A DNA stretch of 31,514 nt from a virus. Taxonomy: Duplodnaviria; Caudoviricetes. Below the pieces are notes generated by a model, which saw only the letters and a list, made by a program, of their open reading frames with translations, was not told the origin of the DNA and did no database searches. Location: the IMG/VR virus record IMGVR_UViG_3300032320_002936, positions 1 through 31,514 of that record; one strand, written 5' to 3'. Positions 6,364 to 29,286 of the stretch are shown one piece after another; within the stretch, counting starts at the first letter, position 1; each line of letters starts with the position of its first letter. Both the position numbers and the translations under genes were made by a program.

Positions 6364-7518
6364 TTAGTTGTTTTTAAGATAAATTAAATCATTTTGATAT
6401 TCTATCATTGAATTAATAGTAATTTTAAATATATCTAATTCAAAAGTACCTATTTCCCCACTTTCTTTAAAAATTTCTGGGAGTTGTTGAATAATACTAA
6501 ATGATTGTTGTGTGACTTGTTTAGCATCAAACTCTACTATTATATCATTTTCTAATAATGGATCATTATGTTCTATAGTAAGAACTCTTTTTGATAAATC
6601 AAATTTAGTATTTTCTTGTTCTCGTTCAACGTAGTCCCACATTCTACCAATTACCTCAAATCGTTCATTAACATATATTCTATCACACCAAGGTTCTAAT
6701 GCTTCAAGTATACTTAAATTACCATTTTTAACTACGAATGCAATATTATATTTAACATCACTATTACGGCTACCCCACTTACGAATAAAATTTTTATTTG
6801 AGTTATATTCTATTTGTTGAGTTCTATTTTGATATTCTTCTGAGAATCTTGAGGTTTTACTAACGAAATGATAACAGATTGCATCTAGAGAAGTAATTAA
6901 TTCTAGTCCTAATAATTTGAAACGTTTAATTAAATCATCATCTTCACAAAACATAGGATTATATAAGTTATCCATTCCTCCAATCTCTAATAATGTCTTA
7001 CGTGGCATACACATGAAGAAGGTAATACCAGTTTCTGTTTGGTTATTGCACTCCTGTTGTTTATTTGCGACAAACTTAAATAAATCTGATTGGTTAAAAG
7101 ATTCTAAACTGGTTCCAAAATCTTTAATTATTTTACCTGGTCTTTCATGACCTGCAAATATTGGTGGTTCAATAGTTGTATATGATACTACTTTATTGGA
7201 ATTTAAATGTTTTTCTACATTTTCAATAAAACCTGGGGCTAATACTATATCATTATGAAGATACATTACATAATCATTAGTAGCTAGTTCAGCTGCTTTA
7301 TTAAAATTATCTGAAAATGTACCTATAGAGTCTGACCACCAGCATTTAACATTTGGATCTGATTGTTTAATTTCATCTAGCCATTCATGAGTACCATCTG
7401 TACTATTATAACTAGAGAAGCATATCTCAACAGTTGGGTAAATTTTTCTAGTAGTTTGGTAAAAATGTTTATTGTAATCTAGATTGTTTTTTAATCCAAT
7501 AAGTAATGATATATTCAT
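6364..7518 (-). CDS. Glycosyltransferase family 2 (GT-A) with C-terminal extension
   Basis: STDGT, FNKAAELATNDYVMYLHNDI, IGGMD, FCEDDDL, CYHF; start at MNISLLIG (7518). Confidence 0.8.
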   Translation of the reverse strand: MNISLLIGLKNNLDYNKHFYQTTRKIYPTVEICFSSYNSTDGTHEWLDEIKQSDPNVKCWWSDSIGTFSDNFNKAAELATNDYVMYLHNDIVLAPGFIENVEKHLNSNKVVSYTTIEPPIFAGHERPGKIIKDFGTSLESFNQSDLFKFVANKQQECNNQTETGITFFMCMPRKTLLEIGGMDNLYNPMFCEDDDLIKRFKLLGLELITSLDAICYHFVSKTSRFSEEYQNRTQQIEYNSNKNFIRKWGSRNSDVKYNIAFVVKNGNLSILEALEPWCDRIYVNERFEVIGRMWDYVEREQENTKFDLSKRVLTIEHNDPLLENDIIVEFDAKQVTQQSFSIIQQLPEIFKESGEIGTFELDIFKITINSMIEYQNDLIYLKNN

Positions 7519-7519
7519 A

Positions 7520-8191
7520 TTAATATTTTTTATAAAATTCTTCAACAGTAATTAAATTATTTAACTCAATTCTATTTTCATCAAAGTATTCCCAAGTTAA
7601 ACAAGTATCTAAAGGAGATTTATCATAAATAAGTTGTTTACCTTTTTTAACTACTCCTACTCCCCAATCCATATCAACAACAGATATTTCTAAATTAGGA
7701 TCTGTACATCTTAATCTAGTTATAGATTTCCATACATCCCCATTCCATAAGCCTGTAACCCTAGGAACTAGTTGCATTTCATATAATAATGGATTACAAT
7801 CATGTAGTATTATAAATCCTTCATCTGTAATATGATTAAGGGCATTTTGAACATCTTTATCTACTTGTGATGAATGATGAAGCCCATCTATAAAAATCAT
7901 ATCATACTTAATATCATGCCCTTTAATAAGTTCAAAGAAATCATCCGATGGTATAGGATAATTAATTTCAGGTACAACTGCTCCTCCTACTTCTGATCCA
8001 GGATATGGATCAACTCCATCTTTATGTGGGGCTATGATTTGTCTTATACAAAGGCCATCATTAACACCTATTTCAAGATAATTAATTAATTTATATTTTT
8101 CAATTAAATAATTCATTAATTCCCATCTTTGAGTTGAAACAAAAATAGGACTTTGTGGGTCACAATATTTTTCTAATTTTTTAGTATCCAT
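7520..8191 (-). CDS. Class I SAM-dependent methyltransferase (Methyltransf_24-like), probably a sugar O-methyltransferase
   Basis: YLEIGV, GVDP, YDMIFIDGLH, GFIILHD motifs. Confidence 0.75.
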   Translation of the reverse strand: MDTKKLEKYCDPQSPIFVSTQRWELMNYLIEKYKLINYLEIGVNDGLCIRQIIAPHKDGVDPYPGSEVGGAVVPEINYPIPSDDFFELIKGHDIKYDMIFIDGLHHSSQVDKDVQNALNHITDEGFIILHDCNPLLYEMQLVPRVTGLWNGDVWKSITRLRCTDPNLEISVVDMDWGVGVVKKGKQLIYDKSPLDTCLTWEYFDENRIELNNLITVEEFYKKY

Positions 8192-9098
8192 CAATTTCTT
8201 TTATTTTATTTTCTATAAATTTATTTAAATTTTTATCAAATTCTTCTCTTTGTTCAGATACATCTCGTCTAACAAGAAAATTTTTATAATAATTAGAAAA
8301 ACCATGTACTTCATCTGTTCTTAAAGGACCAATTGAATATTCGAATATTATTTGACCATCTAAACGATATTGTTGAAAATCTAATCCTTTATGTTTGGCA
8401 TAATTAGAAGCAATTAAACCATAAGTATCCCAACCCCCATATCCTTTCCATTCATCAGGTACTCTTGCTAAATCTTCATAAAAATCTTTGCTATATAAAT
8501 CAAACCAACCAGCCCATTTTAATTGATTAATAGGTGTAATACCAACTTCATCCTGAGTAGTATGTAAGTAGTTATCAACATCAAATATATCTGTTGTTTT
8601 TTCCCATCCATAATGGGGTCCAACTGCAAATTTAGGATGTGTTAATACTTCCCATGATTCATCCCACATTCTGCAAATTTGAGGAGTTAATACAAAATAT
8701 TTATTTGGTATAGATTGAGCAGCTTGTACTAAATATGATAACAAATATTCACTAAAGTACATATCAGGACATATACTAATATAGTAATCAATTCCAGATG
8801 AAATGCATTCTCGTTGTAACTCAAGATGACCATATAATTCATCTCCAGTATAGATTTTAGCATTGTGATTATAATCTTTTAATAAAATAGATAAAGTATT
8901 ATATTTTTCAATAAAAAATTCTTTAGGTAATTTACTTTCATCCCAATTTATTAAAAATGAAGATAAATTTAAAACACTATCTATAGATACATTTACATCT
9001 TTGGGTAGATAATATTTTGATTTTTTAAGCTGAGTAAAGGTTAATAGAGCATAATCTATTTCCCAAGGCATTATATGGTATGTTATTTTTATATTCAT
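8181..9098 (-). CDS. Divergent GT-A glycosyltransferase-like protein
   Basis: DYYISICPDMYF (DxD-like position) and WKGYGGWDT (GWGxED-like, GT2/GT7); located within the glycan locus. Confidence 0.45.
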   Translation of the reverse strand: MNIKITYHIMPWEIDYALLTFTQLKKSKYYLPKDVNVSIDSVLNLSSFLINWDESKLPKEFFIEKYNTLSILLKDYNHNAKIYTGDELYGHLELQRECISSGIDYYISICPDMYFSEYLLSYLVQAAQSIPNKYFVLTPQICRMWDESWEVLTHPKFAVGPHYGWEKTTDIFDVDNYLHTTQDEVGITPINQLKWAGWFDLYSKDFYEDLARVPDEWKGYGGWDTYGLIASNYAKHKGLDFQQYRLDGQIIFEYSIGPLRTDEVHGFSNYYKNFLVRRDVSEQREEFDKNLNKFIENKIKEIDGY

Positions 9099-9862
9099 TT
9101 CAATTCTTCAAAAACATTTTTAATTCCTTGCTCTAATCCTAGAACCTTAATAGGTAATTCAGTACTTTTACCAATATATGAGTTAGTTGGTTTTAAATTA
9201 TTATAATTAACAGGTACTGTCCAATATGATAAATTATTAATAATAGATGCTATCCCACTTAAAGCCATTGTATCATTATAGCAACAATCTATTTCTTTAT
9301 CTAAATTATCATTTAATATATAAAACTCTATTAACGAAACCAAATCTTTTATATAGAAAAAATCCATTAATTTATCCTGATGAATTATTATAGGTTCTCC
9401 AGCAATATATCTTTTAATACTAGCTTTAATAAATCTTGTATCTAATTCATTTTCATCAAATACACCATAAATTCTTATAGTATGCCAATTTTCAATTTCA
9501 TTAACTAATTCATTACACCATTTTTTACTTGCACCATAAGGAGTTTCAGGAGCATACATTTCAGCTCCTGATCCTAGATTAATTAATTTTGTATATTTGT
9601 CTTGGTGAGAGTGTAGATTAGTCATCATGATAATGTTATCTAACAATACTGTTTGATCATCTTCATTTAATCTACTACCTCCTTTAATAGCTGTATGAAT
9701 TACAACATCAAATTGTTTATTCTTAAAGAATTTATCAACTGATTTTCTATTTGTTAAGTCTAATTCATCTCTTCCTGGGGATAATATATGATACCTGTCC
9801 CATAAAGCATTAGTGATGCTTTTAGCTATATAACCTTTACCTCCAGTAATTAATATTTTCAT
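9095..9862 (-). CDS. NAD-dependent epimerase/reductase (extended SDR) for NDP-sugars
   Basis: ILITGGKGYIA, DVVIHTA, LGSGAEMY, YGASK (YxxxK). Confidence 0.85.
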   Translation of the reverse strand: MKILITGGKGYIAKSITNALWDRYHILSPGRDELDLTNRKSVDKFFKNKQFDVVIHTAIKGGSRLNEDDQTVLLDNIIMMTNLHSHQDKYTKLINLGSGAEMYAPETPYGASKKWCNELVNEIENWHTIRIYGVFDENELDTRFIKASIKRYIAGEPIIIHQDKLMDFFYIKDLVSLIEFYILNDNLDKEIDCCYNDTMALSGIASIINNLSYWTVPVNYNNLKPTNSYIGKSTELPIKVLGLEQGIKNVFEELK

Positions 9863-9864
9863 TT

Positions 9865-10791
9865 TTAGTTTTTACGAGTAGTAATTGGGGTTACACTATG
9901 ATTAGGTGAAGCATGATTTTCGACTCTATCTTTTTCATATTTCCATTTATCATCTCCTAATAATTTTTCTAATTCATCTTCTTTAATTTCATAAAAATTT
10001 TCTTGAGCAGGAAATATTCCATTTTTTACTTCATCAACATACTGTTCTAAAGCATCTTGTATAATTTTTCCTGCTTCACAATATCTTTTAACAAATTTAG
10101 ATTTAAACTCCCAAAATAAACCAGTTAAATCATGAAATATAACAAGTTGGCCATCAACACCATTACCACCACCAATACCGTAAACAGGAATTGATAATTG
10201 TTTAGCTATCATTTCAGCTGGTTCTTTAGGCATTGCCTCTAAAAGTAAAGCTGAACATCCTGCTTCTTGTAAAGCTAATGCTTGTTGTAATATTACATCA
10301 GCTTGATCTGCAGTTTTACCTTGAACTTTATATCCTCCTAATTTAGCTCTAGTATGTGGTGTTAGTCCTAAATGACTCATAACCATAATACCTGCTTTTG
10401 CTATTGCTCTTACTCTATCAACCATAGCTCCTTCTACTTTAACCATATCCATACCCGCTCTAATAAATCTTCCAGCGTTTTCAATAGCTAATTCATCTGA
10501 TTGTTGGTAAGACATGTAAGGCATATCTCCAATTAAGAAGGCATTTTGAGCCCCTCTACTAACAGCTTCACAACTTCTAATCATATCTTCCATAGTAACC
10601 GGTATAGTGGTTTTGTATCCTAATTGAGTCATACCTAATGAATCTCCTACTAAAATACAATCTACTCCTGCTCTATCAGCTAATATAGCTTGTGGGTAGT
10701 CATAAGCTGTTACTAATACTGTTTTTTCTCCTTTTAGTTTATTACCTGTTAAAGTAAGAATTGTTTTTTTGGTTTTGCTATCTGCAGCCAT
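9865..10791 (-). CDS. panB: Ketopantoate hydroxymethyltransferase (PanB) homologue
   Basis: TAYD, ILVGDSLGM, GDMPYMSY, VKVEG, HLGLTP, GIGGG, DGQLVIFHD, KFVKRY. Confidence 0.9.
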   Translation of the reverse strand: MAADSKTKKTILTLTGNKLKGEKTVLVTAYDYPQAILADRAGVDCILVGDSLGMTQLGYKTTIPVTMEDMIRSCEAVSRGAQNAFLIGDMPYMSYQQSDELAIENAGRFIRAGMDMVKVEGAMVDRVRAIAKAGIMVMSHLGLTPHTRAKLGGYKVQGKTADQADVILQQALALQEAGCSALLLEAMPKEPAEMIAKQLSIPVYGIGGGNGVDGQLVIFHDLTGLFWEFKSKFVKRYCEAGKIIQDALEQYVDEVKNGIFPAQENFYEIKEDELEKLLGDDKWKYEKDRVENHASPNHSVTPITTRKN

Positions 10792-10810
10792 AAACTTAAT
10801 TTATTAATTA

Positions 10811-12595
10811 TTATTTATTCAAAGTTACCCATCCTTGGGTATTATCACGTCTTGGGATCATATCTATGACCATATTATTTTTTATAGTTTTATCATCTAA
10901 ATATGGAGACATATCTTCTAAAGGGTTACCAAACTCTAATTTAGGAGTTAGTTTTTGTTCTTTATCTATAATAACATTTACTAATATACTACCTTTTTCT
11001 TGAAGAGCCAAATTTATTACATCTTGATAATTAGTTTTATTAGCTTCTATAGCTTTAATTCCATAAGCAGTAGCTATTTTTACAAAATCAGGAGCAGTAT
11101 AATCTTTAGTTTCAGTAGCTATATATCTTGAATCAAAATATGAGTCTTGAAATTGTTTAATTATACCATAACAATTATTATTCATGATAAAAATCTTAAC
11201 AGGTAAATTATAATGTTTAACTGTTTGTAATTCTTGAATATTCATTTGAAATCCTCCATCCCCATCTATACAAATAACTGGATGGGAATTATTAATTGAT
11301 GCTCCTATAGCAGCTGGTAATCCATATCCCATAGATGAATTTCCGAAGTTTGAAAATACCCTTTGATTATTTTTAGGTTTTAAAGACTGCATTGACCACA
11401 CTAAATGGCCGCCTTCATCAGGTATTATAGTGGAATTTGGGGGTAATTGAGTATTAAGATATTCTAAAAATTCATAAGATGTAAGTACATCTGATTTTAA
11501 GGATCTATTGTCTAGTTTTAGGTTTTTATATTTAGTATAAACTTCTAGCCATTCATTATTAATAACATATGGGATTAAATTATTTGACCATTCTGTTATA
11601 AATTGTTTGGCATCACATACTACAGGTAAATCTATTTTTAATCCCCGACCCTTATAAACTTCATTTTTATCAATATCAACCATTACTTTAAATGATTCTC
11701 TTGAAAATGTTTTTAAATCACCTCCAGTTTGTCTTGTATCTAATCTTGAGCCTATAGAAATTAATAAGTCACAATTTTGAACAGCAAAATTACCTCCTCT
11801 ACTTCCATATACTCCTATATCACCTATAAATAAAGGATGATCATGTGATATAATATCAAATCCACCCCAAGATACTACAAAAGGTATATTTAATTTATTT
11901 ATTAACTCATTTATTTCTTCTACAGCATGAGATAATCTAACTCCGTGCCCTATAAGTAATAAAGGTCTCTTAGAGATTTTTAACTGTTTATTTAACCTTT
12001 TAAGTTGATGATTTATATCAGTAATAAGGGGTTTTAGAGAAATTTTAAATACCTCTTCACTAATAATACTATTTTGTATATTAGTAGGTATATCTAATAA
12101 ACTAGGTCCTGGTCTACCCGTAAAACATTTATTTAAGGCTTCATGTAAGTCTTGTTTAAAAGTAGTTGGGTCATTTATTTTTTTAATAAATTTAGTAAAA
12201 GGTTTAAATGATTCAACAACAGGCATTTCTTGGAAACCTAGCTGCCTTGGTTTAGTATTAATAAAATCTAAAGATTCATAAGTACTAACTTGTCCTGTTA
12301 TAAACAAACAAGGTATAGATTCATACCAACACCCACATATACCGTTTAATAAATTTTGAGCCCCAGGACCACTTGTACTTAATACTACTCCTAGTTTACC
12401 TGTTGTTCTATAGTAAGCTTCAGCAGCCATTGCTGCTGACTGTTCATGTTGAAAACAAAAATATTTAATTCCGGGTTTAGTTCCAATATAATCTATAGTA
12501 GGTACTATAGCTCCTCCAGTTACTAAAAAATAGGTATCAATTTTATTATAAACTAAGGTATCAATTAAATATTCTAAAACTTTTTTATCAGACAT
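10811..12595 (-). CDS. ThDP-dependent AHAS-like enzyme, YerE-type sugar-branching carboligase
   Basis: TGGA, QHEQSAAMAAEAY, TSGPG, RQLGFQE, GDGGFQMNIQELQT...NN, C-terminal PLEDMSPYL; neighbours are NDP-sugar enzymes, with no ilvN/ilvC. Confidence 0.8.
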   Translation of the reverse strand: MSDKKVLEYLIDTLVYNKIDTYFLVTGGAIVPTIDYIGTKPGIKYFCFQHEQSAAMAAEAYYRTTGKLGVVLSTSGPGAQNLLNGICGCWYESIPCLFITGQVSTYESLDFINTKPRQLGFQEMPVVESFKPFTKFIKKINDPTTFKQDLHEALNKCFTGRPGPSLLDIPTNIQNSIISEEVFKISLKPLITDINHQLKRLNKQLKISKRPLLLIGHGVRLSHAVEEINELINKLNIPFVVSWGGFDIISHDHPLFIGDIGVYGSRGGNFAVQNCDLLISIGSRLDTRQTGGDLKTFSRESFKVMVDIDKNEVYKGRGLKIDLPVVCDAKQFITEWSNNLIPYVINNEWLEVYTKYKNLKLDNRSLKSDVLTSYEFLEYLNTQLPPNSTIIPDEGGHLVWSMQSLKPKNNQRVFSNFGNSSMGYGLPAAIGASINNSHPVICIDGDGGFQMNIQELQTVKHYNLPVKIFIMNNNCYGIIKQFQDSYFDSRYIATETKDYTAPDFVKIATAYGIKAIEANKTNYQDVINLALQEKGSILVNVIIDKEQKLTPKLEFGNPLEDMSPYLDDKTIKNNMVIDMIPRRDNTQGWVTLNK

Positions 12596-12601
12596 ATAAA
12601 T

Positions 12602-13138
12602 TTATTTTTCTTTACTAAAATCACCAAATTCAACTAAGATAGTATTAATACCATCAGTTCTATTTAATGCTTTTTCGTAAGCAGGAACTATATCTTCAGG
12701 TTCGAATAACTCTATAACTTCTGTGTTTTTAGTCATTTGTCTAAATGCTTCTGAAAAGTTTCCTTTATGTTGGCATTGAGGATCAACTGGTCTTTCACTT
12801 CCTACTGCTACTCTAATAATAACTTTAGGGTTACATTTACCATTTGACATTTCAATAAACTTGTCCAAATGGTTAACTATTTGATCTACTCCCATTAGTA
12901 AAAAATTCCATCTTGGATAAGTTGATACGGGAATCATTCCTTCAATAGCCATTCCATTTGCCAATCCTGTTTGTAAATACTCAGCTACCGGTAGTTCTAA
13001 TTTTTTGTGTGAAGGTAAATGAGCCATAGTATCGAATAGTCCTGTTCCTTCATACTCAACAGCTTGTCCTATAAATAAAGTTTTAGGATGTTCAGCTAAC
13101 AAGCTCATTGCTTTCTTTAATTCTTCAAAGTATTTCAT
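12602..13138 (-). CDS. Short 2-oxoacid dehydrogenase E1-beta/transketolase Pyr-domain protein
   Basis: ELPVAE..QTGLANGMA..G..P, FL....DQIVN, QH; 178 aa, lacks the C-terminal domain. Confidence 0.8.
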   Translation of the reverse strand: MKYFEELKKAMSLLAEHPKTLFIGQAVEYEGTGLFDTMAHLPSHKKLELPVAEYLQTGLANGMAIEGMIPVSTYPRWNFLLMGVDQIVNHLDKFIEMSNGKCNPKVIIRVAVGSERPVDPQCQHKGNFSEAFRQMTKNTEVIELFEPEDIVPAYEKALNRTDGINTILVEFGDFSKEK

Positions 13139-13147
13139 ATCTCTGTA

Positions 13148-13774
13148 TTAAAATTGAACTCTCATTCCGGCACCAGCATGAGGATATTTTGTATTTTCGT
13201 ATTGGTAATATACTAAATTCTTTTGAAATAGCAAACCTCCTTGATAATCAGAGTTTAAATAGTAAGGCCGATCTCTTTTCCAAATATCTGGGGTTGGTGT
13301 GCAGACTGATTTTCTATTATCTTCTACAATAAATGTGATAGGTAAATCATGATTTAAACTATATTTGTAGGCTTCATGAAATGCTCCGGTTTCAGCAGAC
13401 ATATCACCTACCCAACACCAAACTTTATTTGGTTTTTCTTGATATTTAATTGCTAAAGCAATACCTGCTGCTATAGAAGGAATACCACCAACAATTGAAC
13501 TACAAATAAATTTATATTCAGGAAGATTAACCACCATTGATTTACCCTCCATAATATTCTGTTTCATCACTTCAGTTGGAATTCCTTTTAATAATCCTTG
13601 ATAATGATTTCTCCAAGTACAACATACCCAATCATTTTCTATATCAATGTGATTAAATAATGAAATCATTAATTCTTCATTCCCATGATATAAATGAATA
13701 GGAGCTTTTATTTCACCTTTATTAAATGAATCTCCAATTTCAGTTTCAAACTGAATTAATTGTTCTTTTACCAT
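13148..13774 (-). CDS. Short 2-oxoacid dehydrogenase E1-alpha (ThDP PP-domain) protein
   Basis: PIHLYHGNE, TWRNH, SIVGG, GDMSAETGAFHEA...FIVEDN ThDP motif; 208 aa. Confidence 0.8.
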   Translation of the reverse strand: MVKEQLIQFETEIGDSFNKGEIKAPIHLYHGNEELMISLFNHIDIENDWVCCTWRNHYQGLLKGIPTEVMKQNIMEGKSMVVNLPEYKFICSSIVGGIPSIAAGIALAIKYQEKPNKVWCWVGDMSAETGAFHEAYKYSLNHDLPITFIVEDNRKSVCTPTPDIWKRDRPYYLNSDYQGGLLFQKNLVYYQYENTKYPHAGAGMRVQF

Positions 13775-14724
13775 ATAAATTTTTCTCTGTAATATTCTAT
13801 AATATGTTTTAATTCAATATCAAAATTCATTTCAGGCTTCCATCCTAATGCTCTTAACTTATCATCATTTAAGGCATATCTAACATCTTGTCCTTTTCTA
13901 TCATATGAAAAGTCTATAAAATCTTCTAACATATAAACCTTATTATTATTGTGTAATGTAAGAACTTTTTTTATAGTTTCCAAATTACTTTGTTCAAATC
14001 CACCACAGATATTAAAAATTTCATTCTGAATTCCAGATTCAATAATTGTAATAATAGCATTAGCTGTATCTTGGGCATGAAGCCAAGTTCTAATTGGAGT
14101 ACCTCCATTATGTAGCGGAATCTTTTTTCCTAACTTTAAATGCTTTAATGCTTTAGGAATTAACTTTTCAGTATACTGTCCTGCTCCGTAGTTATTTGTT
14201 GGCCGAACTATTACATAAGGAAGGTTGTAAGTTCTACCCCATGCTGTTACAAGCATATCTGCTGCAGCTTTTGTAGCTGAGTATGGATTGGAAGGTTTAA
14301 GTAAATCTGTTTCTATATGTTCTCCTTCTTCAATGTCTCCATATACTTCATCTGTACTAAAGTGAAGTAATATAGGTTTTGATGAATGTTCTCCTCTGTG
14401 ATTTTTAATTAATTCTAATAAGTTATGTACACCATTTATATTTGAAGATACAAATTCATCTGAATTAGCTATGGAGTTTCCAACGTGAGTTTCAGCAGCT
14501 GTATTGATTATATAATCACAATCATATAAAAAATTTAAATCATTTATATCGCAATTAACAAATGAAAAATTTTTATATTTTTTAAATTCGGTTAAAAGTC
14601 CTTTATTAGAAGCATAAGTTCCCTTATCAACTCCTTTTACATACCATCCTTTATTTAGGCATGCTCTTGTTACATAGGATCCTATAAACCCTAAACAACC
14701 TGTTACGTAAACTACTTTTGTCAT
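13768..14724 (-). CDS. rfbB: NDP-glucose 4,6-dehydratase, RfbB/RmlB type
   Basis: TGCLGFIG, AAETHV, STDEVYG (catalytic T-D-E), YSATK, NNYG..Q..EKLIP, RKGQDVRY. Confidence 0.85.
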   Translation of the reverse strand: MTKVVYVTGCLGFIGSYVTRACLNKGWYVKGVDKGTYASNKGLLTEFKKYKNFSFVNCDINDLNFLYDCDYIINTAAETHVGNSIANSDEFVSSNINGVHNLLELIKNHRGEHSSKPILLHFSTDEVYGDIEEGEHIETDLLKPSNPYSATKAAADMLVTAWGRTYNLPYVIVRPTNNYGAGQYTEKLIPKALKHLKLGKKIPLHNGGTPIRTWLHAQDTANAIITIIESGIQNEIFNICGGFEQSNLETIKKVLTLHNNNKVYMLEDFIDFSYDRKGQDVRYALNDDKLRALGWKPEMNFDIELKHIIEYYREKFIW

Positions 14725-15557
14725 ATAAATAAATTATTACAATTATTTGCAAATTTTATGGTTTGTTCAACCATTTTATTTTTTTGGTTTTCTATTTCTT
14801 TAAATAATAAAGGTAAAGTTTCTATAGCACGAGGTATATCATCTTCACCATAAGCTATTCCATACTTATGAAGAGGAGATCCTTCTAACCATTCTTCTTT
14901 TGTTTTAATTCCATCAGGTACTACTATACTTAAACACCCACACATTGCTGCCTGAGTGTGTAAAAATGTATAATTATCGTAACAATAAAATCTTTCAGTT
15001 TTATTAAAAAGTTCTGAAAGTGAAGTTAAATCTCCTGCAGAATTAAATGGGATAAAGATAGAATCGTTAGGATGAATTAATTGTTTGGGGTTAGCTTTTC
15101 TAATTGAATAACAACTACCATTTCTTTTGTTACCTACATTTTTAAAAATATTATCATGAAATTCTGATATCTGAAGTATGTTTTCTTTATATCCTAAAGA
15201 TTCAACATAATAATAATCCATATACCAATAAATCAAATCTGATTTTAAATAAGTTACAGTATCTTCGGTTCTTGGTGGTCCTAATATCCATCTTACTACG
15301 TTTTTGGCATTTAATGGATTATATTTAATCCCTTCAGGGTATATTACTATAGCGTTATCTAAATCATCTAATATTTCTTGGGTAATTAAAGGAGTATCAT
15401 AATCATCACATACATAAAAATCTTCTCTAATATGAATAGGCATTAAATAACTTTCATATCCATTTTTATTAAGTAAATCACATAATTTATGCATTACTTT
15501 AATTCCTCCTACTCCTGGGGAGTAATCATATGTGTATATTACAAATGGTTTTTTCAT
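14721..15557 (-). CDS. WavQ-like putative glycosyltransferase
   Basis: GGIKVMHKLCDLL, IVIYPE....NPLNAKNVVRWIL, AAMCGC. Confidence 0.5.
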   Translation of the reverse strand: MKKPFVIYTYDYSPGVGGIKVMHKLCDLLNKNGYESYLMPIHIREDFYVCDDYDTPLITQEILDDLDNAIVIYPEGIKYNPLNAKNVVRWILGPPRTEDTVTYLKSDLIYWYMDYYYVESLGYKENILQISEFHDNIFKNVGNKRNGSCYSIRKANPKQLIHPNDSIFIPFNSAGDLTSLSELFNKTERFYCYDNYTFLHTQAAMCGCLSIVVPDGIKTKEEWLEGSPLHKYGIAYGEDDIPRAIETLPLLFKEIENQKNKMVEQTIKFANNCNNLFI

Positions 15558-16456
15558 TAAAAGTTACAATTGCATTGTTCATTTAAAAATTGTTTGGTTT
15601 CATCATTAAACCAAACTGTTTTCATTTCATGTAGAGTTTCATTGTATTCTTCTTTAGTTTTTACTCCTAAAGCTTCAGCATAATGAAATACTTTAATTTG
15701 TTTATTATCGGGTGTAAATAATTTATTATCTTTAACATGATAAGTTGAAGTAGGATAAATATTCCCTATTACACTGCTATTAGGATCTTTATAATTTCCA
15801 TTATATAAATTACCACGATACATTTGATTACCCCCACAAGCCATTCCTTTAGATCTTACATTATATAATGATTTAGTTTTATTATATGGAAAATCTACAA
15901 TACTTACTTTTATATTTAATTGATCTTGATTTTGGTATAGATAATTCATTCCACCTTGTTCAGCATGATTAGTCCAAAATTCTATAGATTTTTCTATTAA
16001 CATATCCGCTGATTTAAAATTATTAAAACAGGCAACATCAGCATTTATAAAATCAACATCACCATCAATAAATTTTGGAGCCCAATACTCAGTTTTCAAA
16101 AAACTATAAGGTGGACCTGATGAACATATCATATCATCAATATCATTGTTTATAAATTCATCAAGATATGAGCATGTAAATGTATCTAGCCCTAACATTA
16201 TTACTTTATCATAATTTTTTAGTCTAAATAATTCTCTTATAATATAAACTCGAATTAAACCTACACTATCATAGTATTCAGTTATATTTAAATCTTTTAA
16301 ATAAGAATTAAAATTATCATTAGTAATATGATGAATATCTACATTAGGATGCCATTTTTTAAAACTATTTATAGCATTAGGAGCAAAAAAGTCATCTTTT
16401 TGATAATTATTACCTTCATGATTAGTAATATGTAAAAAAACACAAGCTATTTTCAT
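15557..16456 (-). CDS. GT8-like glycosyltransferase (degenerate DxD)
   Basis: NSFKKWHP, YDKVIMLGLD, FINADV, EQGGMNYL, FHYA follow the GT8 motif order. Confidence 0.5.
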   Translation of the reverse strand: MKIACVFLHITNHEGNNYQKDDFFAPNAINSFKKWHPNVDIHHITNDNFNSYLKDLNITEYYDSVGLIRVYIIRELFRLKNYDKVIMLGLDTFTCSYLDEFINNDIDDMICSSGPPYSFLKTEYWAPKFIDGDVDFINADVACFNNFKSADMLIEKSIEFWTNHAEQGGMNYLYQNQDQLNIKVSIVDFPYNKTKSLYNVRSKGMACGGNQMYRGNLYNGNYKDPNSSVIGNIYPTSTYHVKDNKLFTPDNKQIKVFHYAEALGVKTKEEYNETLHEMKTVWFNDETKQFLNEQCNCNF

Positions 16457-16457
16457 A

Positions 16458-17768
16458 TTACTTATTAAAGAATTTATCTACAATTGTTCCAATATATTCT
16501 ATTTGTTCTAGAGTAATTACTGGAGAGCATCCTAGAAAGAAAGTATCTGTTGTTACTTTTCTTGATACTGGATATTTTTCAATTACTTCTTTTGAATCAA
16601 TTAAATGAGAATATCCTGGTTGTAACATGATGTTACCTGCGAAATAAGGTCTTGTTTGAATCTTATTTGCTTCTAAGTACTGACAAAACTCAGCTCTTGT
16701 AAAATTCATCCCATCTCTAACTGTTAATGCAACTGCGAACCAATCAGGATCTGATTTAGCTGTAGCTTTTGGTAAAATAAATTTATCTTCATACTTCTTG
16801 AAGATATCAACAATTGCTGCATGGTTTCTTCTTCTAAGTACTCCAATCTCTTCTAACTTACCTAACTGAACATTACCCATTGCTGCTTGTAACTCAGTTG
16901 GCTTTAAGTTGTATCCAATCTCTTCGTAAGTGTATTTGTGATCAAATATTTCATTAGGTAAACTTGGTAACCAGTTACTAAACCTGATACCGCATGAACC
17001 ACATTCTAAAGCATTTGCTTTACCTTGACAGAAACATCCTCTTCCCCAATCTCTGAAGCTTCTTAATATTTTTTCTGTATGAGCATCTTGACATGCTACA
17101 AATCCTCCTTCACCCATTGTGATGTGATGTGCTGGGTAGAATGAACATGAAGCCATTTTACCAAATGATCCTAGCATTTTACCATCATAAGTTGTTCCTA
17201 AAGCATCACAACAATCTTCTAATAAAATTAAATTGTATTTATTTACAATTTCCATTAATCGATCCATGTTAGGTGGATTACCTAATACGTGAGCAAATGT
17301 AATTATCTTTGCATCAGGATGGTCAATACATGCTTGCTCTACTTGATCTAAATCTAAGTTTAAAGATTCTAATTCAATGTCAACAAAGATTGGTGTAAAA
17401 CCTACTTGAATAGCAGGACTAAGTGTTGCAGGAAATCCTGCTATTGGAGTAATTACTTTTGTACCTTTTGGTAAGTTCATTCCTCTTTTAGATGTTAAAG
17501 CTAACATCATTAATAAATTAGCACTTGAACCGCTATTAACAATAACTCCAGTCTTCTGTCCTAATTTTTTAGGAAAACGTCTTTCGAACATTGCTCCTTC
17601 TTTTCCTAGAACTAACCAACCTTCAAGCATAGTTCTAACAACTGCTTGTGCTTCTTGACCATCAAAGTAAGGTCCAGCATATTGAACTAAATCTTCACCT
17701 GCTACCCACTTTTTTTTACTGTCTTTGTTTGTAATGTACTCTTGTACTAAATTTAAAATATTGTTCAT
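16458..17768 (-). CDS. rfbH: NDP-4-keto-6-deoxyglucose 3-dehydrase (E1, RfbH/DdhC/AscC family)
   Basis: VNSGSSANL, HVLGNP, EDCCDALG, SFYPAHHITMGEGG (His in place of the Schiff-base Lys), RDWGRGCFC, DHKY, GYNLK. Confidence 0.92.
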   Translation of the reverse strand: MNNILNLVQEYITNKDSKKKWVAGEDLVQYAGPYFDGQEAQAVVRTMLEGWLVLGKEGAMFERRFPKKLGQKTGVIVNSGSSANLLMMLALTSKRGMNLPKGTKVITPIAGFPATLSPAIQVGFTPIFVDIELESLNLDLDQVEQACIDHPDAKIITFAHVLGNPPNMDRLMEIVNKYNLILLEDCCDALGTTYDGKMLGSFGKMASCSFYPAHHITMGEGGFVACQDAHTEKILRSFRDWGRGCFCQGKANALECGSCGIRFSNWLPSLPNEIFDHKYTYEEIGYNLKPTELQAAMGNVQLGKLEEIGVLRRRNHAAIVDIFKKYEDKFILPKATAKSDPDWFAVALTVRDGMNFTRAEFCQYLEANKIQTRPYFAGNIMLQPGYSHLIDSKEVIEKYPVSRKVTTDTFFLGCSPVITLEQIEYIGTIVDKFFNK

Positions 17769-17789: not shown

Positions 17790-17818
17790 AATATAATAAA
17801 AATAATTTGAATATCCAA
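17790..17818 (-). promoter_or_regulatory. Putative promoter TTGGA-N18-TATATT (copy 5), internal to the glycan locus
   Basis: Minus strand TTGGATATTCAAATTATTTTTATTATATT, 21 nt before the rfbH ATG. Confidence 0.6.
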
Positions 17819-17824
17819 ATAATT

Positions 17825-18877
17825 TTATATTTCTCCTTTATCAATTTGTTTTAAAACTTCTATAATTGAATCTATATCAAATAATTCCCAAGCTAAATTA
17901 TTAGGGTCGGATTGCCCTTCTTCTAATTGTGCCACACAAACACCACCACCATCTAAACTGATTAGGTTAGTTTTTGATTTATTTGAAAATTGTTGACATT
18001 TATATCCTAACCAACCTTCCATTTTAGGATGAGTAATAATAATATTAGTATTAGCTTTAGTAGAAAATAATAAATTTATGTTAGAAGCACTACTTTGTTG
18101 AATAATATTTTTATAGGATTTAAATATTTGTATTTTACCTATAATATCATGATCCATTAATTCAATAATATCATAGTCTAGCTCATTTTTAATTTTATCT
18201 ATAAGTTCTAACTCATTTATCAAATTTCTTGAATGATACCATCCTCTTTTTATAGTATCTTGCCTTGAAATATAACATCCATTTTTAATTGGAGTTTTTG
18301 CTGGGATTTTAGAAACTGTTTCAACTATTCTATCAGTGATTAGATCATCTCCATGAGACATTGGAAAACCATATAGTAAATTAGGTAAAATTAAGTTTGA
18401 TATTTTGTATTTAACATGTTTTTTAAATACTATAATTTCAATATTTTTATCTTGATAATATAAATCTAACCATTGCTTTACAAAACTACTATCACCTTTT
18501 TCTTGATAATAGTCTTCAAGTATTCCTAGTTTTAATTTAGGATTTGTTTTTAGTAATTCATCAAAATACAAACATCTTCCAAAGAAATTAAAAAAGTGGT
18601 GAATATAATTTAACCCTGATTCATCATAAAGAAAAAATATTTCGTCTTCTAATAATTCATCAAATGATTCATCTATAGCAACAATATTAGTATGTAAAGA
18701 TTGATTATTATTACTAGTATTAATCAAATAACCATCATGAGATATATCAACCCATCCTATACCATTTTTTATATCATTCTCCTTATGTCTTAGAATAGGA
18801 TTTTTAATTAATGTACAAAAATCATTTTGGGGATTAATAGTTTTTGGTAAATTTATATTAATTCTTTGGGAGTTCAT
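17825..18877 (-). CDS. Glycosyltransferase family 61 (DUF563)-like protein
   Basis: NYIHHF, YISRQD....RNLINELEL, IQIFKSYKNII...SA..NLLF. Confidence 0.65.
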   Translation of the reverse strand: MNSQRININLPKTINPQNDFCTLIKNPILRHKENDIKNGIGWVDISHDGYLINTSNNNQSLHTNIVAIDESFDELLEDEIFFLYDESGLNYIHHFFNFFGRCLYFDELLKTNPKLKLGILEDYYQEKGDSSFVKQWLDLYYQDKNIEIIVFKKHVKYKISNLILPNLLYGFPMSHGDDLITDRIVETVSKIPAKTPIKNGCYISRQDTIKRGWYHSRNLINELELIDKIKNELDYDIIELMDHDIIGKIQIFKSYKNIIQQSSASNINLLFSTKANTNIIITHPKMEGWLGYKCQQFSNKSKTNLISLDGGGVCVAQLEEGQSDPNNLAWELFDIDSIIEVLKQIDKGEI

Positions 18878-20732
18878 CTAATAAGGTATTTATTATTTTA
18901 AAGTATTTTGCAAATTTATCTTGGTCTTCAGTATGTAAAGGCATAAGTGTGAAGAATAAACTTGCTGTTATCATTTTTATTATACGAAGACCTTTTTCCT
19001 CAAACAAATCTTCAAATACATTTTTAAATTCATTTATATAAACATTATCTAATTCAATATCATTTAAAATAAAATCATATCCTAATATTGATTGATAAAC
19101 CTTGGCTAAATCATAATAAGCATCTCCTATAATAGTTAACTCATTATCTATTTTACCTTTCATATCAATAAACTTTAAACCTTGTTCAGTTTGTAAAACA
19201 TTGGTAAATACTGGGTCACCATGTATCACCGCAAACACTGCTTTATCATAGTGAAATAATAAATTATCAAGTTTTTTAAATATAGATTCAGCGTGTATGT
19301 ACTTATTGTATAAATCTAGATTATTATTGTATCTATCTCTAAGTTTTTGGTTATAGTCAGCATAAACTTTAGGATATGTTTTTACTTTACCAATTGTAAT
19401 ATGAAGCATATTTAATTGCTGTAGTAACTCTTTTAATTGTTCAACTTTTAATAATTTATTAGTATACAAATATGAAAAATTTACACCTTCAATATTTTCC
19501 ATAGTAATTTGATTACCGGTAATATTATATACTTTGGGAAATAAATGTTCACGGTGTTTAGGTATATTTTGATACCAATAAATTTCACCTGGGTTTGAAG
19601 TAGTTTTTACAACTTTATCTTTATTATAGTCTACTTTATTAAATGTTCTAGGTACAATTTCAGTATCATAAACTCCTATAGCTTGATTCATTGATATAGA
19701 AGGGTTAACAGCTAAATCATCTATGTAAAAATTAGCGTATGGCTTACCAAAATAAATTTCATCATAAGGTATATCAAATTTATCAAGTGTATCGAGAGTT
19801 ACCCTGGATATATCGGCTATTACACGTCCAACATTACCACCATGTGTTTTCATTCTACGGGCAGTATAAATTATAATAGTATGGCCTAAACTATGAAGTA
19901 ATTTAAGGAAATTAATGTTACGTTGAATTGGTTCTACACTATAGTAATCACCTGGTATAGTAGGATATGAAACTAAAGTATTATCAAAATCAAAACATAT
20001 TCTTAATGATTCTGAGTTGTGTTTGTTTTTATTACAATAAATTTGAAGTTGTAGAGGAGTACCCACACAACTAAATTTAGTTATTTGTTGTCCTTTTATT
20101 ACTAAATTATCTTTTAACATTTCATTATACACACATGAGGTATAAAGTTCTGTTGTTGTAGAAGGTAATTTTTCAATATACTGTTTTAGAGTACGCCCTG
20201 TATGAAAACCATAGGCACCAGTATTAGCCCAATCTGATATTTTTGTTTTCTCAGCTATTTTTGTAACCCAATTATTAGAATCTAATTTTATATAAGAAAA
20301 TATAGGGTTGGTTTGCTTATCTTCAAAATAAAAAATCATATTTTTATTATCAGACTTTCTATAATAATCTAATATATCTTCTTCATAAAAGGTATCACAA
20401 TCCAAAACTAAAAATTCTTTTTCTAATTCTTTAACAGGCATTTCATTTAACCCATAAAGTATAGTTTCAGATGCTCCTTTAGTAACATGATTTAAAGATA
20501 TAAATTTAATATTTTTTTTAGGGAAATAGAACTTAACTAAATTTTCAAAGTTAAATTCTTTTAACTGGTTATTATAAACAATGTAGATAGTATCCTCATC
20601 ATTTAATTTCAGGTTATCTATTACTCTATAAATCATAGTTTTACCTAAAACACTTATAAGTGGTTTAGGCATAAGATATCCTTCATCTTTAAAACGTTGA
20701 CCTATACCTCCAATTGGAATTATTATGTTCAT
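18858..20732 (-). CDS. Three-domain fusion: nucleotidyltransferase + HAD-IIIC (EcbF/BcbF-like) phosphatase + APH/choline-kinase-like phosphotransferase
   Basis: MNIIIPIGGIGQRF...PKPLI, LDCD; DFDNTL, YTARRM, FGKP...YIDD; IHGDPVFTNV...FIDMKG, YDLAK; ATG 20732 overlaps the upstream TGA (ATGA). Confidence 0.8.
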   Translation of the reverse strand: MNIIIPIGGIGQRFKDEGYLMPKPLISVLGKTMIYRVIDNLKLNDEDTIYIVYNNQLKEFNFENLVKFYFPKKNIKFISLNHVTKGASETILYGLNEMPVKELEKEFLVLDCDTFYEEDILDYYRKSDNKNMIFYFEDKQTNPIFSYIKLDSNNWVTKIAEKTKISDWANTGAYGFHTGRTLKQYIEKLPSTTTELYTSCVYNEMLKDNLVIKGQQITKFSCVGTPLQLQIYCNKNKHNSESLRICFDFDNTLVSYPTIPGDYYSVEPIQRNINFLKLLHSLGHTIIIYTARRMKTHGGNVGRVIADISRVTLDTLDKFDIPYDEIYFGKPYANFYIDDLAVNPSISMNQAIGVYDTEIVPRTFNKVDYNKDKVVKTTSNPGEIYWYQNIPKHREHLFPKVYNITGNQITMENIEGVNFSYLYTNKLLKVEQLKELLQQLNMLHITIGKVKTYPKVYADYNQKLRDRYNNNLDLYNKYIHAESIFKKLDNLLFHYDKAVFAVIHGDPVFTNVLQTEQGLKFIDMKGKIDNELTIIGDAYYDLAKVYQSILGYDFILNDIELDNVYINEFKNVFEDLFEEKGLRIIKMITASLFFTLMPLHTEDQDKFAKYFKIINTLLDELPKN

Positions 20733-21346
20733 AATAGATCGTATAAATTGTTTTGTTTTTCTTGCCTCTCGATGTGTTTTGGATGGTATAAACAATAATC
20801 ATCCTCTAATGGTAAAGTAGCCCAAGTGTTATGACCCATTAGTACTTCATGCACTTTATTACCCCAATTGATTTTTGGTGAATTTTGAAGTATACGAGGT
20901 TGTAAATCAGGAAAGTTAACCCATCCTTTTTCATTTACATTCCATCTCCATCTTTGGATGTGTTCTTGAGTTAATCCTTCTACAGTATTAATTCTAGGAA
21001 GTAAAAATACATCAATAGTTGAATTGTCTTGAAGTATTAAATGCAAATTCTGTAAAAATTCAATTGTTACATATTCATCAGCATCTATTTGAAAAATCCA
21101 TTCTCCAATACAATGTTTTTTTAGATTATTTTTAAAAGCTGAAAAGTTACCTTTTAAAGGAAATTCTATAACATTTACTCTACCATAAAATTGGTCTAGT
21201 ACTTTATATACTTCAGGTGTAGTATTACCTTGATCACATTGAACTACTATTTCATCCTCATCTCTTTTATTAGTGACGAGGATGCTTAGTAATCTCATTA
21301 ATTCTTCATGTTCATTACAAACAGGAATCGCATAACTTATTTTCAT
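20729..21346 (-). CDS. Glycosyltransferase family 2
   Basis: ISYAIPVCNE, DEIVV, FSAFKN, WIFQIDADE, VHE. Confidence 0.85.
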   Translation of the reverse strand: MKISYAIPVCNEHEELMRLLSILVTNKRDEDEIVVQCDQGNTTPEVYKVLDQFYGRVNVIEFPLKGNFSAFKNNLKKHCIGEWIFQIDADEYVTIEFLQNLHLILQDNSTIDVFLLPRINTVEGLTQEHIQRWRWNVNEKGWVNFPDLQPRILQNSPKINWGNKVHEVLMGHNTWATLPLEDDYCLYHPKHIERQEKQNNLYDLL

Positions 21347-21351
21347 ATTTT

Positions 21352-21804
21352 TTAGTTGTAAAAACCTATATAATCTAACGCCTCAATAAAATCCTCTTGT
21401 GGATAATTCTTTAAAGATTTAATATCAGTTTTATGTGTATAAAATTCTTCAGTACCTGGAATTTTGAATTTACCTTTCTCTTCTTCGCTTACTTCAACAG
21501 CTTTTATACCTGCCCATTGCCAATTGAATTTAGAAGTACCATTAGCAAATACCGTTCCTTTATCCTGAATATTAATGGTAATTGGATACCATACTCGTTT
21601 TTCTGAATCTGTGTTTTTGAGGTCTTTGTAAAGTTCAGGTAAAGTTTCTTCATAAGTATCAAATTCGAATTCACCTTCTTTCATTAGATCATTAGTTTGA
21701 AAACCACATCCAAAACAAAAATAATTGTTTTTTACTTCGTTTACAGGAGTGATATAACAAGCATCACTCCCGCAACGTGGACATATAGATAATTTATCTT
21801 TCAT
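21352..21804 (-). CDS. Zinc-ribbon protein
   Basis: CPRCGSDAC...YFCFGCGF. Confidence 0.65.
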   Translation of the reverse strand: MKDKLSICPRCGSDACYITPVNEVKNNYFCFGCGFQTNDLMKEGEFEFDTYEETLPELYKDLKNTDSEKRVWYPITINIQDKGTVFANGTSKFNWQWAGIKAVEVSEEEKGKFKIPGTEEFYTHKTDIKSLKNYPQEDFIEALDYIGFYN

Positions 21805-21805
21805 T

Positions 21806-23113: not shown

Positions 23114-23123
23114 TATAATTTTA

Positions 23124-27645: not shown

Positions 27646-29286
27646 TTACATCATTCCTTGCATAGGATTGATTTCTTCTTTTTTGTCTTCTTTTTTCTCG
27701 TAAATTACAGATTCGGTTGTTAGGATTGTACCTGCAACTGAAGCTGCGTTTTCTAAAGCAATACGAGTTACTTTTTTAGGATCAATAATACCTGCAGATT
27801 TAAAATCCATTGTTGATAAGTCTTTATAGTTAAGACCATTCCAATTGCTTCCTTTTTCTGAATCAGTTAATTTAGAACCTAGATATTGAACCTCAGTTAA
27901 ATCATGACCTGCATTGGTTAATATTCTTTGGAATGGAGCAGCTGCTGCTCTGTAAACAATTTTCTTACCATTTACAAAATCATTTGAACCTTCAAAAGTA
28001 ATACCTTTACGAGCATATAATAAAGCAGTTCCACCACCAATTACAATACCTTCTTCAAGAGCGGCTTTTGTAGCAAATAAAGCATCTTCTACTCTATCTT
28101 TTTTCTCTTTAATTTCAAGTTCACTATTACCACCTACGTTAATAATAGCTACTCCACCAATCATTTTACCTAAACGCTCTTGTAATTTTTCTTTTTCAAA
28201 TGGTGAACCTGCGTCATCAATTTGTTTTTTAATTTCTTGAGCTCTAGTTTCAATTGCTTCTTCTGATCCTTTACCATCTACAATTGTTGTTTTTTCTTTT
28301 CCAATTGTAGCAGTACGAGAAGTACCTAAACATTGTTTTAAAGTATTAACATCAATTTTTTCTAATTTATGTCCTTTATCTTTAGAAAGAACTTGACCAC
28401 CTGTGATAATAGCTAAATCTTCTAAAGCCATTGTTCTACGATCTCCAAATTCAGGAGCTTTAACTGCTACTACATTTACAATACCTCTCATCTTATTAAC
28501 GATAGTCACGGCTAATGCTTCTCCATCAATATCCTCTGCTACTACTAATAATGCTCGTTTTTCAGTATTAGCTAATGTTAGAGCTGGGATTAATTCTTGA
28601 TGGTTGGTAATTCTACCATTATAAATTAAGATGTAAGGATTATCTAATACAGCGGTCATTGTATTATTATCAGTTACAAAATAAGGTGATTTGTAACCTC
28701 TATCAAATTGCATACCTTCTACAATTTCAAGTGAAGTTTCACCGGATTTTGATTCTTCAATAGCAACAACTCCATCTCTACCTACTTTTTCTAAAGCAGT
28801 AGCAATTAAATTACCAATTTCTACATCATTGTTACCTGAAATAGTAGCAACTTCTTTAATTTGTTGATTGTCCGAAATATCTTCTGTTAGGTTATTAAGA
28901 GTAGTTTTAAGTTCTTCTACAGCGGCATCAATTCCTTTTTTAATTTCAATTGGATTTTGACCTGCACTTACATGTTTCAATCCTTCTTCTAGAATTGCAT
29001 AAGATAATAAAGTTGAAGTAGTAGTACCATCACCTACTTCATTTGCGGATTTAATTGATACTTTTTTTACTAATTCAGCCCCAATTGATTCGATTGGATC
29101 TTCTAGTTCTTTAAATTCTTTAGCTACAGATACACCGTCTTTAGTTACTGTTAATTGACCATAATCTCCTTTGATTAATACTGTTCTACCTGCTGGTCCT
29201 AAGGTAGAAGATACACTATCATTTAGTTTTTTTACTCCTGATAGTAATTTAGTTTTTAATTCTGTTCCGAATGCTGTTTCTGTCAT
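27646..29286 (-). CDS. groEL: Chaperonin GroEL
   Basis: [64 protein letters not shown]. Confidence 0.97.

Follow-up and report, generated by a model that had tools for sequence, protein, structure and literature searches.

Two stacked thiamine diphosphate enzyme cassettes, one of them with PanB, in the glycan island of a phage: a predicted route to acyl-branched deoxysugars

Enzymes that branch sugars with thiamine diphosphate (ThDP) have been reviewed as three superfamilies, namely YerE-like, E1-type and transketolase, the second of which seems to form no branches other than C2 ones (PMC12247030). The scheme of Steitz 2022 runs from an aldolase through its 2-oxo acid to a ThDP enzyme and a reductase, and the enzymes ErwE, MyGE and MMAR_2332 accept 4-hydroxy-2-oxobutanoate (PMC9306805). 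PanB of E. coli is itself a class II aldolase that hydroxymethylates varied 2-oxo acids (PMC7610986, PMC7611260). We analysed the whole 31.5-kb virus record IMGVR_UViG_3300032320_002936 (Caudoviricetes; 31,514 nt, hereafter the window), an AT-rich sequence with its genes on the minus strand, in which a block of nine genes at 17768-9095 carries two putative systems of this sort in tandem: a short pair of E1alpha- and E1beta-like ThDP subunits (cassette 1), and a 594-amino-acid (aa) YerE-like ThDP enzyme followed by PanB (cassette 2). The two are alternative cassettes, stacked here, and this stacked pair together with the evidence for exchange in its slot is what the window adds. The block itself very probably encodes a branched-deoxysugar pathway.

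The nine open reading frames (ORFs) were listed in the original prediction, made from the window's sequence alone, and all are present and intact in the order given there: the E1-type 3-dehydrase RfbH (16458-17768), a GT8-like glycosyltransferase (GT) of GT-A type (299 aa, 15557-16456), a GT of GT-B fold (278 aa, 14721-15557), an RmlB-type nucleoside diphosphate (NDP)-glucose 4,6-dehydratase (13768-14724), the E1alpha-like subunit (208 aa, 13148-13774), the E1beta-like subunit (178 aa, 12602-13138), the YerE-like carboligase (10811-12595), PanB (9865-10791) and an extended short-chain dehydrogenase/reductase (SDR, 9095-9862). Intergenic gaps of -7 to +19 nt bear out the tight coupling also described there, which in fact continues past 9095 to 6364 through a GT-A gene, a methyltransferase and a GT2 that overlap by 4, 14 and 26 nt.

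Reading the nine genes as one pathway, as the original prediction did, does not survive comparison with other loci. The E1 subunits are far shorter than ordinary ones, the alpha subunit having an E1_dh domain and the beta subunit Transket_pyr only, with no Transketolase_C domain (median 178 aa in 78 homologues). A search anchored on E1alpha kept 80 of 109 confirmed loci; the GD...N cofactor motif (GD123...N153 here) is present in 73 of the 80 homologues and E1beta follows directly in 79 loci, yet just five loci have a YerE-like gene, the other 75 lacking one within 7 kb, and none has panB. In these loci the pair sits directly between the dehydratase (or 3-dehydrase) and the SDR, which follows E1beta in 66 of 77 cases; an SDR likewise follows the ThDP-panB pair in 52 of 59 loci, and six more have another epimerase-type SDR there. 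Single loci display the exchange exactly. L001 (L numbers are our locus handles) is colinear with the window minus precisely the 278-aa GT and the E1 pair, keeping the YerE-like gene and panB, and L222 and L256 go from E1beta to the SDR, omitting precisely the YerE-like and panB stretch.

A second search, anchored on the 305-aa GT-A gene at 8181-9098 and hence not presupposing the content of the slot, gave 49 loci (41 distinct), 35 of the 49 with the SDR directly upstream of that gene. Among the 28 distinct loci with this arrangement, 25 have a ThDP enzyme within 5 kb and three have none. A YerE-like gene is joined to DmpF/DmpG (acetaldehyde dehydrogenase plus DmpG aldolase, the ErwJ/ErwI pairing) in six of the 28, to a DJ-1/cupin/HAD set in three (two of these also with an E1 pair), to HpcH aldolase in two, to PanB in two and to RraA/DAHP-synthase in one, and in three has no recognised donor gene; the E1 pair alone fills the slot in two loci and a split mini-transketolase in six. 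A NeuB-like partner also occurs. PanB thus stands where the donor-making aldolases of erwiniose and caryophyllose type stand. The synteny search proposed in the original prediction accordingly finds exchangeable ThDP cassettes in one slot of viral loci and, for most of the nearest gammaproteobacterial relatives of the ThDP enzyme, deoxysugar clusters.

The tandem is not peculiar to one assembly: the E1beta-ThDP junction is bridged in the probable source contig and in contigs of two other studies (one of 4471 nt with 202 differences), and we rejected an assembly chimera on this ground. In each of the four cassette genes, synonymous changes make up most of the codon differences from close relatives (59:2 in panB, 56:9 in E1beta). 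The 278-aa GT-B gene varies among relatives by whole-gene presence or absence, with an 846-nt skip (14726-15573) in contigs of two runs.

Several variants of these modules were seen in passing. The split mini-transketolase (about 205 + 158 aa, no C-terminal domain) lies between dehydratase and SDR in L326 (6846-7941), L342, L351, L355, L358, L359, L370 and L377, and is a candidate third branching cassette. The trio of DJ-1/PfpI, cupin and small HAD genes directly ahead of the YerE-like gene (L017 8403-9998; L227 8177-9778; L229; L331) may be another donor-making module. In 12 of the 13 loci L018-L030, some of them near-duplicates, the YerE-like gene is split into ORFs of about 335 and 250 aa (e.g., L019 9938-11691, L029 9884-11636), in L029 alongside a divergent PanB (43%). 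Finally, L033 (2265-14406), apparently a bacterial capsule locus with a Wzz-like gene and an ABC transporter, carries consecutively the short pair of E1 subunits, panB, a ThDP gene and a split transketolase.

From what is observed, namely the genes with their families, folds and intact motifs, the tree placement and the exchange of cassettes, we would draw, with moderate confidence in the picture as a whole, a pathway to one or two C4-branched 3,6-dideoxyhexoses through the two stacked thiamine cassettes. The dehydratase would turn host dTDP- or UDP-glucose into a 4-keto-6-deoxy sugar, from which RfbH would take off the 3-hydroxyl, using electrons supplied by a ferredoxin or flavodoxin of the host. 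The short pair of cassette 1 would put acetyl from pyruvate on the sugar, giving a yersiniose-type branch. In cassette 2 PanB would use methylene-tetrahydrofolate to hydroxymethylate a 2-oxo acid (giving ketopantoate from ketoisovalerate, or a 4-hydroxy-2-oxo acid from pyruvate or 2-oxobutanoate), and the YerE-like enzyme would decarboxylate the PanB product and pass the hydroxy-acyl unit to C4. The SDR, whose Ser and YxxxK are unbroken and whose PDB matches are only weak, is a likely branch- or sugar-ketone reductase for both cassettes and would reduce the branch ketone. Phage GT-A and GT-B enzymes would then move the sugars, most likely onto virion proteins, else onto host surface glycans.

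The transferases for this last step are recognisable mainly by fold, as Pfam and PHROGs name none of the 299-, 278- and 305-aa ORFs. The GT8-like call for the 299-aa protein stands, on GT-A motifs, 89% by hhalign to a Pfam GT8 hit and Atlas neighbours of GT8/Nucleotid_trans type; the model of the 278-aa protein (pLDDT 92) has GT-B transferases as its top Foldseek matches, and that of the 305-aa protein (pLDDT 95), which lies outside the range covered by the original prediction, matches GT-A transferases and makes it a candidate transferase for the branched sugar. The earlier claim that the phage attaches its sugar with its own GTs therefore stands for the transferase features of both its candidates (hhalign, Foldseek), the sugar and acceptor remaining predictions. 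Virion proteins are weakly favoured as acceptor because no export genes were seen in the window: there is no Wzx, Wzy or GtrA-type gene among its 29 scanned ORFs, whereas GtrA matches occur in two of the six bacterial loci examined, a weak point in favour. That the sugars instead go to the surface of the host cell, where they would mask receptors, or to the DNA of the phage is quite possible, if somewhat the less probable destination. Modules for O-antigen side branches in bacteria are similar to this pathway (PMC5399914), and T4 DNA glucosyltransferases appear, at low rank, among the neighbours that Foldseek and Atlas give for the GT-B protein; a weak point on the other side is that the related Flavobacterium phage immuto has 7-deazaguanine DNA-modification genes elsewhere.

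That the E1 pair is an independent branching enzyme is fairly probable, and the C2 limit of the E1-type family fits the absence of panB from all 80 E1 loci. The pair could instead serve the YerE-like route, by way of an aldehyde or acyloin, or belong to another sugar, leaving a single branched product. For this speak the recurrence of the tandem order in L396 (76-88% identity, but with a ColD-length dehydrase), the position of E1 ahead of other YerE-like modules in the five loci that combine them, the presence of one SDR for two cassettes and the occurrence of fused cyanophage homologues in other sugar contexts. A helper would hardly be expected to stand between dehydratase and SDR in the 75 loci with no nearby YerE-like gene, nor to be dropped or kept by itself as in L001, L222 and L256, and we regard this alternative as rather unlikely.

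PanB is the core partner of the YerE-like enzyme. It scores 285 bits against TIGR00222 (cut-off 208), and a panB search kept 80 viral loci of 119 confirmed, with 67 distinct PanB sequences. A ThDP gene adjoins panB in 79 of the 80, upstream in 60 and downstream in 19, the lone locus without one ending at a contig edge; these partners are as distant as 30-38% identity from the 594-aa enzyme. In the reverse test, ThDP enzymes of at least 55% identity have an adjacent panB in 31 of 37 metagenome loci, the other six being cut off, and those below 42% identity have one in none of 33 loci. All 66 DegT-family genes (at least 200 aa) in the panB loci have His at the E1 column, so that 3-deoxygenation travels with the ThDP-PanB pair. 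The original prediction had included panB as a pathway gene next to the ThDP gene, where it is, and had given no role to what proves the tightest partner. Its C4-branched sugar, thought yersiniose- or erwiniose-like or new, is to be narrowed likewise: the ThDP enzyme, RfbH and the slot fit branching, and plain yersiniose is an unlikely product of the YerE-like enzyme given so tight a link to PanB.

We consider it reasonably probable, from sequence and context, that PanB makes the donor. Residues corresponding to E. coli D45, S46, D84, K112, E114, H136 and E181, which we take to be catalytic from their presumed roles in that enzyme, are kept in 72-73 of 73 sequences, and the clade is marked by Q142H (69 of 73) and G135S (71 of 73). 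In the tree these sequences make up a clade (99/97) separate from PanBs linked to panC or panD. Queries with E. coli ilvC, ilvD, ilvH, ilvN, ilvM, panC, panD and panE matched none of 107 viral loci, the short IlvH/N/M queries being insensitive, and ilvE-like matches occurred in two; among whole virus records IlvD was found in none of four and PanC in none of five, with positive controls. As 80 GTDB loci, kept from a scan of 36 of 64 parts, also lack a panC match, panC context alone is not decisive. A ThDP neighbour occurs in five of these 80 GTDB panB loci. Of the five cellular genomes concerned, four also have a second, distant panB, which adjoins panD in one case and lies close to panC in another. 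One of the five loci, L032, agrees with viral L126 in its gene lengths and probably represents a mis-binned phage contig. Among 50,697 cultured-phage records no close relative of the panB clade was found; the panB of MaAM05, tried as a member, was rejected as lying near panC and outside the clade. In ten loci of one ThDP subclade (the L128 11570-13105 family; L035, L036) a B12-dependent radical SAM protein directly precedes panB, which suggests C-methylation of the branch.

PanB might instead act later than the ThDP enzyme and hydroxymethylate an acetyl branch of the NDP-sugar, or might use another aldehyde in a folate-free aldol reaction; the product would be branched in either case. PanB swaps among four ThDP subclades 30-38% identical to the 594-aa enzyme, as would suit a donor-independent step, and the clade changes Q142H and G135S can be read in the same sense. 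PanB chemistry, however, requires a 2-oxo acid, which counts against this order. A late-acting PanB would also be expected with the acetyl-making E1 pair, yet panB is absent from the E1-anchored loci, and the six panB-anchored loci with an E1 pair all also contain a YerE-like gene. E. coli PanB does work in the absence of folate on aldehydes as large as C5 sugars (PMC7610986), but in the erwiniose case branching first is excluded since ErwE refuses pyruvate (PMC9306805). A late or folate-free PanB is, to much the same degree as a helper role for the E1 pair, unlikely.

The 594-aa enzyme is, by motifs, structure ranking and phylogeny, a YerE-like, probably sugar-branching carboligase and not an acetohydroxyacid synthase (AHAS). 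It has all three TPP domains, with the catalytic Glu in HEQ at 50-52, GDGG at 445 and NNN at 472, and lies in a gene cluster that contains a 4,6-dehydratase, a 3-dehydrase and a reductase. Its best NCBIfam label is the AHAS large subunit TIGR00118, at 394 bits under a cut-off of 538, and it falls below every AHAS cut-off; the AHAS motifs RFDDR and QWQ are swapped for RLDTR and QFQ. Among PDB chains it ranks 8rph first (298 bits), then 5ahk (293; presumably PpYerE, the name being unconfirmed), with AHAS at 228 or less, and the control B. subtilis IlvB gives AHAS 540, 5ahk 284 and 8rph 215. In a tree of 25 rows (LG+G4, near-duplicates and two long branches removed) it falls in a 100/99 clade of viral and bacterial sugar-cluster enzymes, and an approximately unbiased (AU) test rejects grouping with AHAS (p-AU 7e-104, a cost of 102 log units); a 45-row quick tree gives the same placement. 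The clade is anchored indirectly through L210, whose best PDB match is 8rph at 425 bits; 8rph is JanthE (PMC12188165). The nearest gammaproteobacterial relatives (6 of 400 genomes) lie mostly in deoxysugar clusters, four of the six with an HpcH aldolase. Among the 50,697 cultured-phage records there is no close ThDP relative, the best among the matches listed being 32.6% identical, AHAS-like and host-DNA-looking, and a plasmid search has AHAS at the top of the best 30 of 1718 matches; of five plasmid loci taken from it, four entered the trees, L208 having been removed by the ORF filter. The placement against YerE and IlvB/IlvG that the original prediction had proposed thus falls with sugar-cluster enzymes, and the test by which it had offered to be refuted, grouping with AHAS, does not refute it.

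That the ThDP gene is an AHAS and PanB a maker of ketopantoate, both being auxiliary valine, pantothenate or CoA genes that lie in a sugar island by chance, is very improbable: the AHAS label, a PanB above its equivalog cut-off with catalytic residues kept, prasinovirus homologues read as amino-acid genes (PMC5371798) and the homocoupling side products of YerE-like JanthE (PMC12188165) can be cited for it, but the AU test and replaced motifs, the missing ilv and pan partner genes and the second, distant panB of most of the cellular genomes oppose it.

The upstream enzymes are consistent with a 3,6-dideoxy sugar. RfbH scores 455.7 bits against NF011936 (cut-off 423), its best PDB match is 3bcx (340 bits, vs. 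159-164 for ColD), and it keeps His214 in SFYPAHH and a Cys cluster at 245-259. PDB chains 3bcx and 3bb8 differ (H/K) at the His214 column, where we take His to replace the Schiff-base Lys, the Cys residues presumably being the Fe-S motif; by these marks RfbH is a true E1-type (His-type) 3-dehydrase, as the original prediction had it. The 4,6-dehydratase keeps its catalytic TDE and YxxxK and scores 302.5 bits against TIGR01181, under the cut-off of 365, the CDP-type model TIGR02622 giving only 76; the nucleotide is thus probably dTDP or UDP rather than CDP. Domain and family scans of the window found no E3 reductase of DdhD type and no NDP-glucose synthase. The idea that the phage makes its own sugar therefore stands as regards the intact pathway genes, and the phage is probably not self-sufficient for it.

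Several points weigh against the branched-sugar pathway as drawn. Every substrate, product and acceptor in it is our prediction from the genes. The loci compared here were gathered by short-pattern searches, contain near-duplicates and cannot be counted as independent. The ThDP tree omitted the YpYerE, ErwE and YerF sequences, and 5ahk scores true AHAS nearly as high as the 594-aa enzyme (284 vs. 293), so that the 5ahk match alone proves little. In the PanB pocket L216 and I218 stand for E. coli I212 and V214, but they are common to PanBs without a ThDP neighbour, and the sequence therefore does not show a changed substrate; nor does the PanB tree track the subclades of the ThDP enzyme (11 label changes, against a minimum of 4), as tight co-evolution would lead one to expect. 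A ketopantoate donor would, in our judgement, meet a steric difficulty, its neopentyl-type acyl unit having to be added to a ketone. Neither an E3-type ferredoxin domain (Fer2) nor RmlA above cut-off was found in any of five near-complete relatives, and electrons and NDP-glucose are therefore probably host-supplied. Lastly, in cyanophages S-SM2 (L386 6971-8179) and P-TIM68 (L387 7049-8194) a fused E1alpha/beta homologue, annotated as transketolase, lies in a nucleotide-sugar cluster. Its neighbours there are a Zn-dehydrogenase and a carbohydrate kinase, and no 3-dehydrase is annotated within 14.5 kb, so the short E1 family may do other chemistry.

The window bears out the phage context noted at the outset, since it contains a T4-like clamp loader, GroES/EL and a PolB end. 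Among cultured phages, the flanking GT4 (59.8%) and GroEL (54.8%) both match best in Flavobacterium phage vB_FspM_immuto_2-6A (Immutovirus immuto), and a tail-sheath model matches in all five near-complete IMG/VR relatives, above cut-off in four. Immuto has the same flanks (DUF3310, a PD-(D/E)XK nuclease, a small ORF, GT4, GT4, an ORF and GT2 ... GT2 ... HNH) around a different sugar island, one with aminotransferases, a methyltransferase and an epimerase and with neither ThDP nor panB genes; it also differs in a family A polymerase at the locus where the window ends in PolB. The block thus occupies the changeable interior of a glycan locus with fixed borders, in an uncultured large phage of Immutovirus-like kind, and the closeness of flanks and GroEL to immuto, the shared island flanks and the tail-sheath matches make a Bacteroidota host likely.

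The rest of the island, on the same strand, comprises two GT4 genes, a 150-aa ORF, a GT2, a fusion gene and a GT61 upstream (17825-24548) and, coupled downstream, a Methyltransf_24 methyltransferase identified by domain scan (7520-8194) and a closing GT2 (6364-7545), which corresponds in position and family to immuto gene 102. The fusion (18858-20795), which adjoins the GT61, joins a nucleotidyltransferase, an EcbF/BcbF-type HAD phosphatase and an aminoglycoside/choline-kinase-like domain. Genes for GroES, GroEL and an Hsp20 chaperone lie at 27646-30366, beside the clamp loader and PolB.

A shared promoter had been proposed for the nine genes, and a promoter-like motif, TT[AT]GG-N19-TATATT, does lie 22 nt ahead of rfbH (17790-17819, minus strand). 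It occurs seven times on the coding strand and never on the opposite one (expected 0.53 per strand, for a motif picked post hoc from the gaps); four of the seven sites are within 30 nt of a start codon, and the site is retained ahead of four of 13 rfbH homologues. Intergenic sites are at 29930-29901, 27641-27612, 17819-17790, 4189-4160 and 3419-3390, two of them enclosing a hairpin. The recurrent motif is a likely phage promoter candidate, and the shared promoter stands in that sense only. A sigma-70 scan, with fewer sites than in shuffles (65 vs. 91), was uninformative.

More tentatively, and with considerable doubt, large aquatic phages may keep one dehydratase-reductase slot for interchangeable cassettes from three thiamine superfamilies (YerE-like with six kinds of donor module, mini E1alpha/beta, and mini split transketolase), the two stacked here yielding acetyl-derived and undescribed PanB-derived hydroxymethyl-acyl branched sugars on the virion and so diversifying its coat. 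If the pathway is as we propose, PanB would be a new donor route, with an undescribed sugar, for the small set of acyl-branched monosaccharides, and phages would encode and shuffle pathways to such sugars. Viral genes labelled 'acetolactate synthase', 'panB', 'pyruvate dehydrogenase E1', 'dehydroquinate synthase' or 'oxovalerate aldolase' in such islands would then have to be reinterpreted as glycan genes; in a prasinovirus review several of them are assigned to amino-acid or aldehyde metabolism (PMC5371798). There would also be new ketone-accepting ThDP biocatalysts to draw on, including a very small alpha/beta pair, and since the window has both cassettes with shared upstream enzymes, a single in vitro reconstitution could address both. 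A literature search, which did not cover the largest survey of YerE-like clusters (>200 clusters, Krug et al.), found no link of PanB to YerE-like enzymes and no phage branched-sugar pathway, in keeping with the earlier statement that no characterised phage pathway of this kind was known; PanB is not mentioned in the accessible parts of PMC9306805 or its supplement.

Among described systems, the yersiniose A pathway of Yersinia pseudotuberculosis O:6/O:12 (DdhDABC, YerE, YerF) shares with the window an E1 3-dehydrase orthologue (3bcx) and, as family-level likenesses, a YerE-like carboligase and an SDR. It differs in that a CDP-glucose dehydratase is expected there (the window's enzyme scores 76 with TIGR02622 vs. 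302 with TIGR01181), in DdhA and DdhD, for which no counterpart was found in the window, and in the extra PanB and E1 pair here; YpYerE, moreover, is restricted to pyruvate and 2-oxobutyrate. The alpha-KADH2 enzymes of actinomycetes (aldgamycin, kosinostatin, kibdelomycin KbDH-alpha/beta; PMC12247030) resemble cassette 1 by description: alpha and beta ThDP subunits are encoded as a pair within a deoxysugar cluster, E2 and E3 genes do not adjoin them, and a reductase follows. The window's subunits, however, are of about 209 and 178 aa, have no transketolase C-terminal domain and lie in a phage glycan island, not an antibiotic cluster. Clusters for erwiniose, caryophyllose and gastriose (ErwI-ErwJ-ErwE-ErwF; MMAR_2331-2332; MygI-MyGE-MygF; PMC9306805) likewise have genes for a 3,6-dideoxy-4-keto sugar, a YerE-like enzyme, a reductase and an adjacent enzyme that forms a 2-oxo acid, and related phages carry their DmpF/DmpG and HpcH versions in the same slot as the window's cassettes. 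Compared with these clusters, the window lacks an E3 and a nucleotidyltransferase, uses an RmlB-type rather than CDP-type dehydratase, is phage-borne, and has PanB in the donor slot and a second ThDP cassette in tandem.

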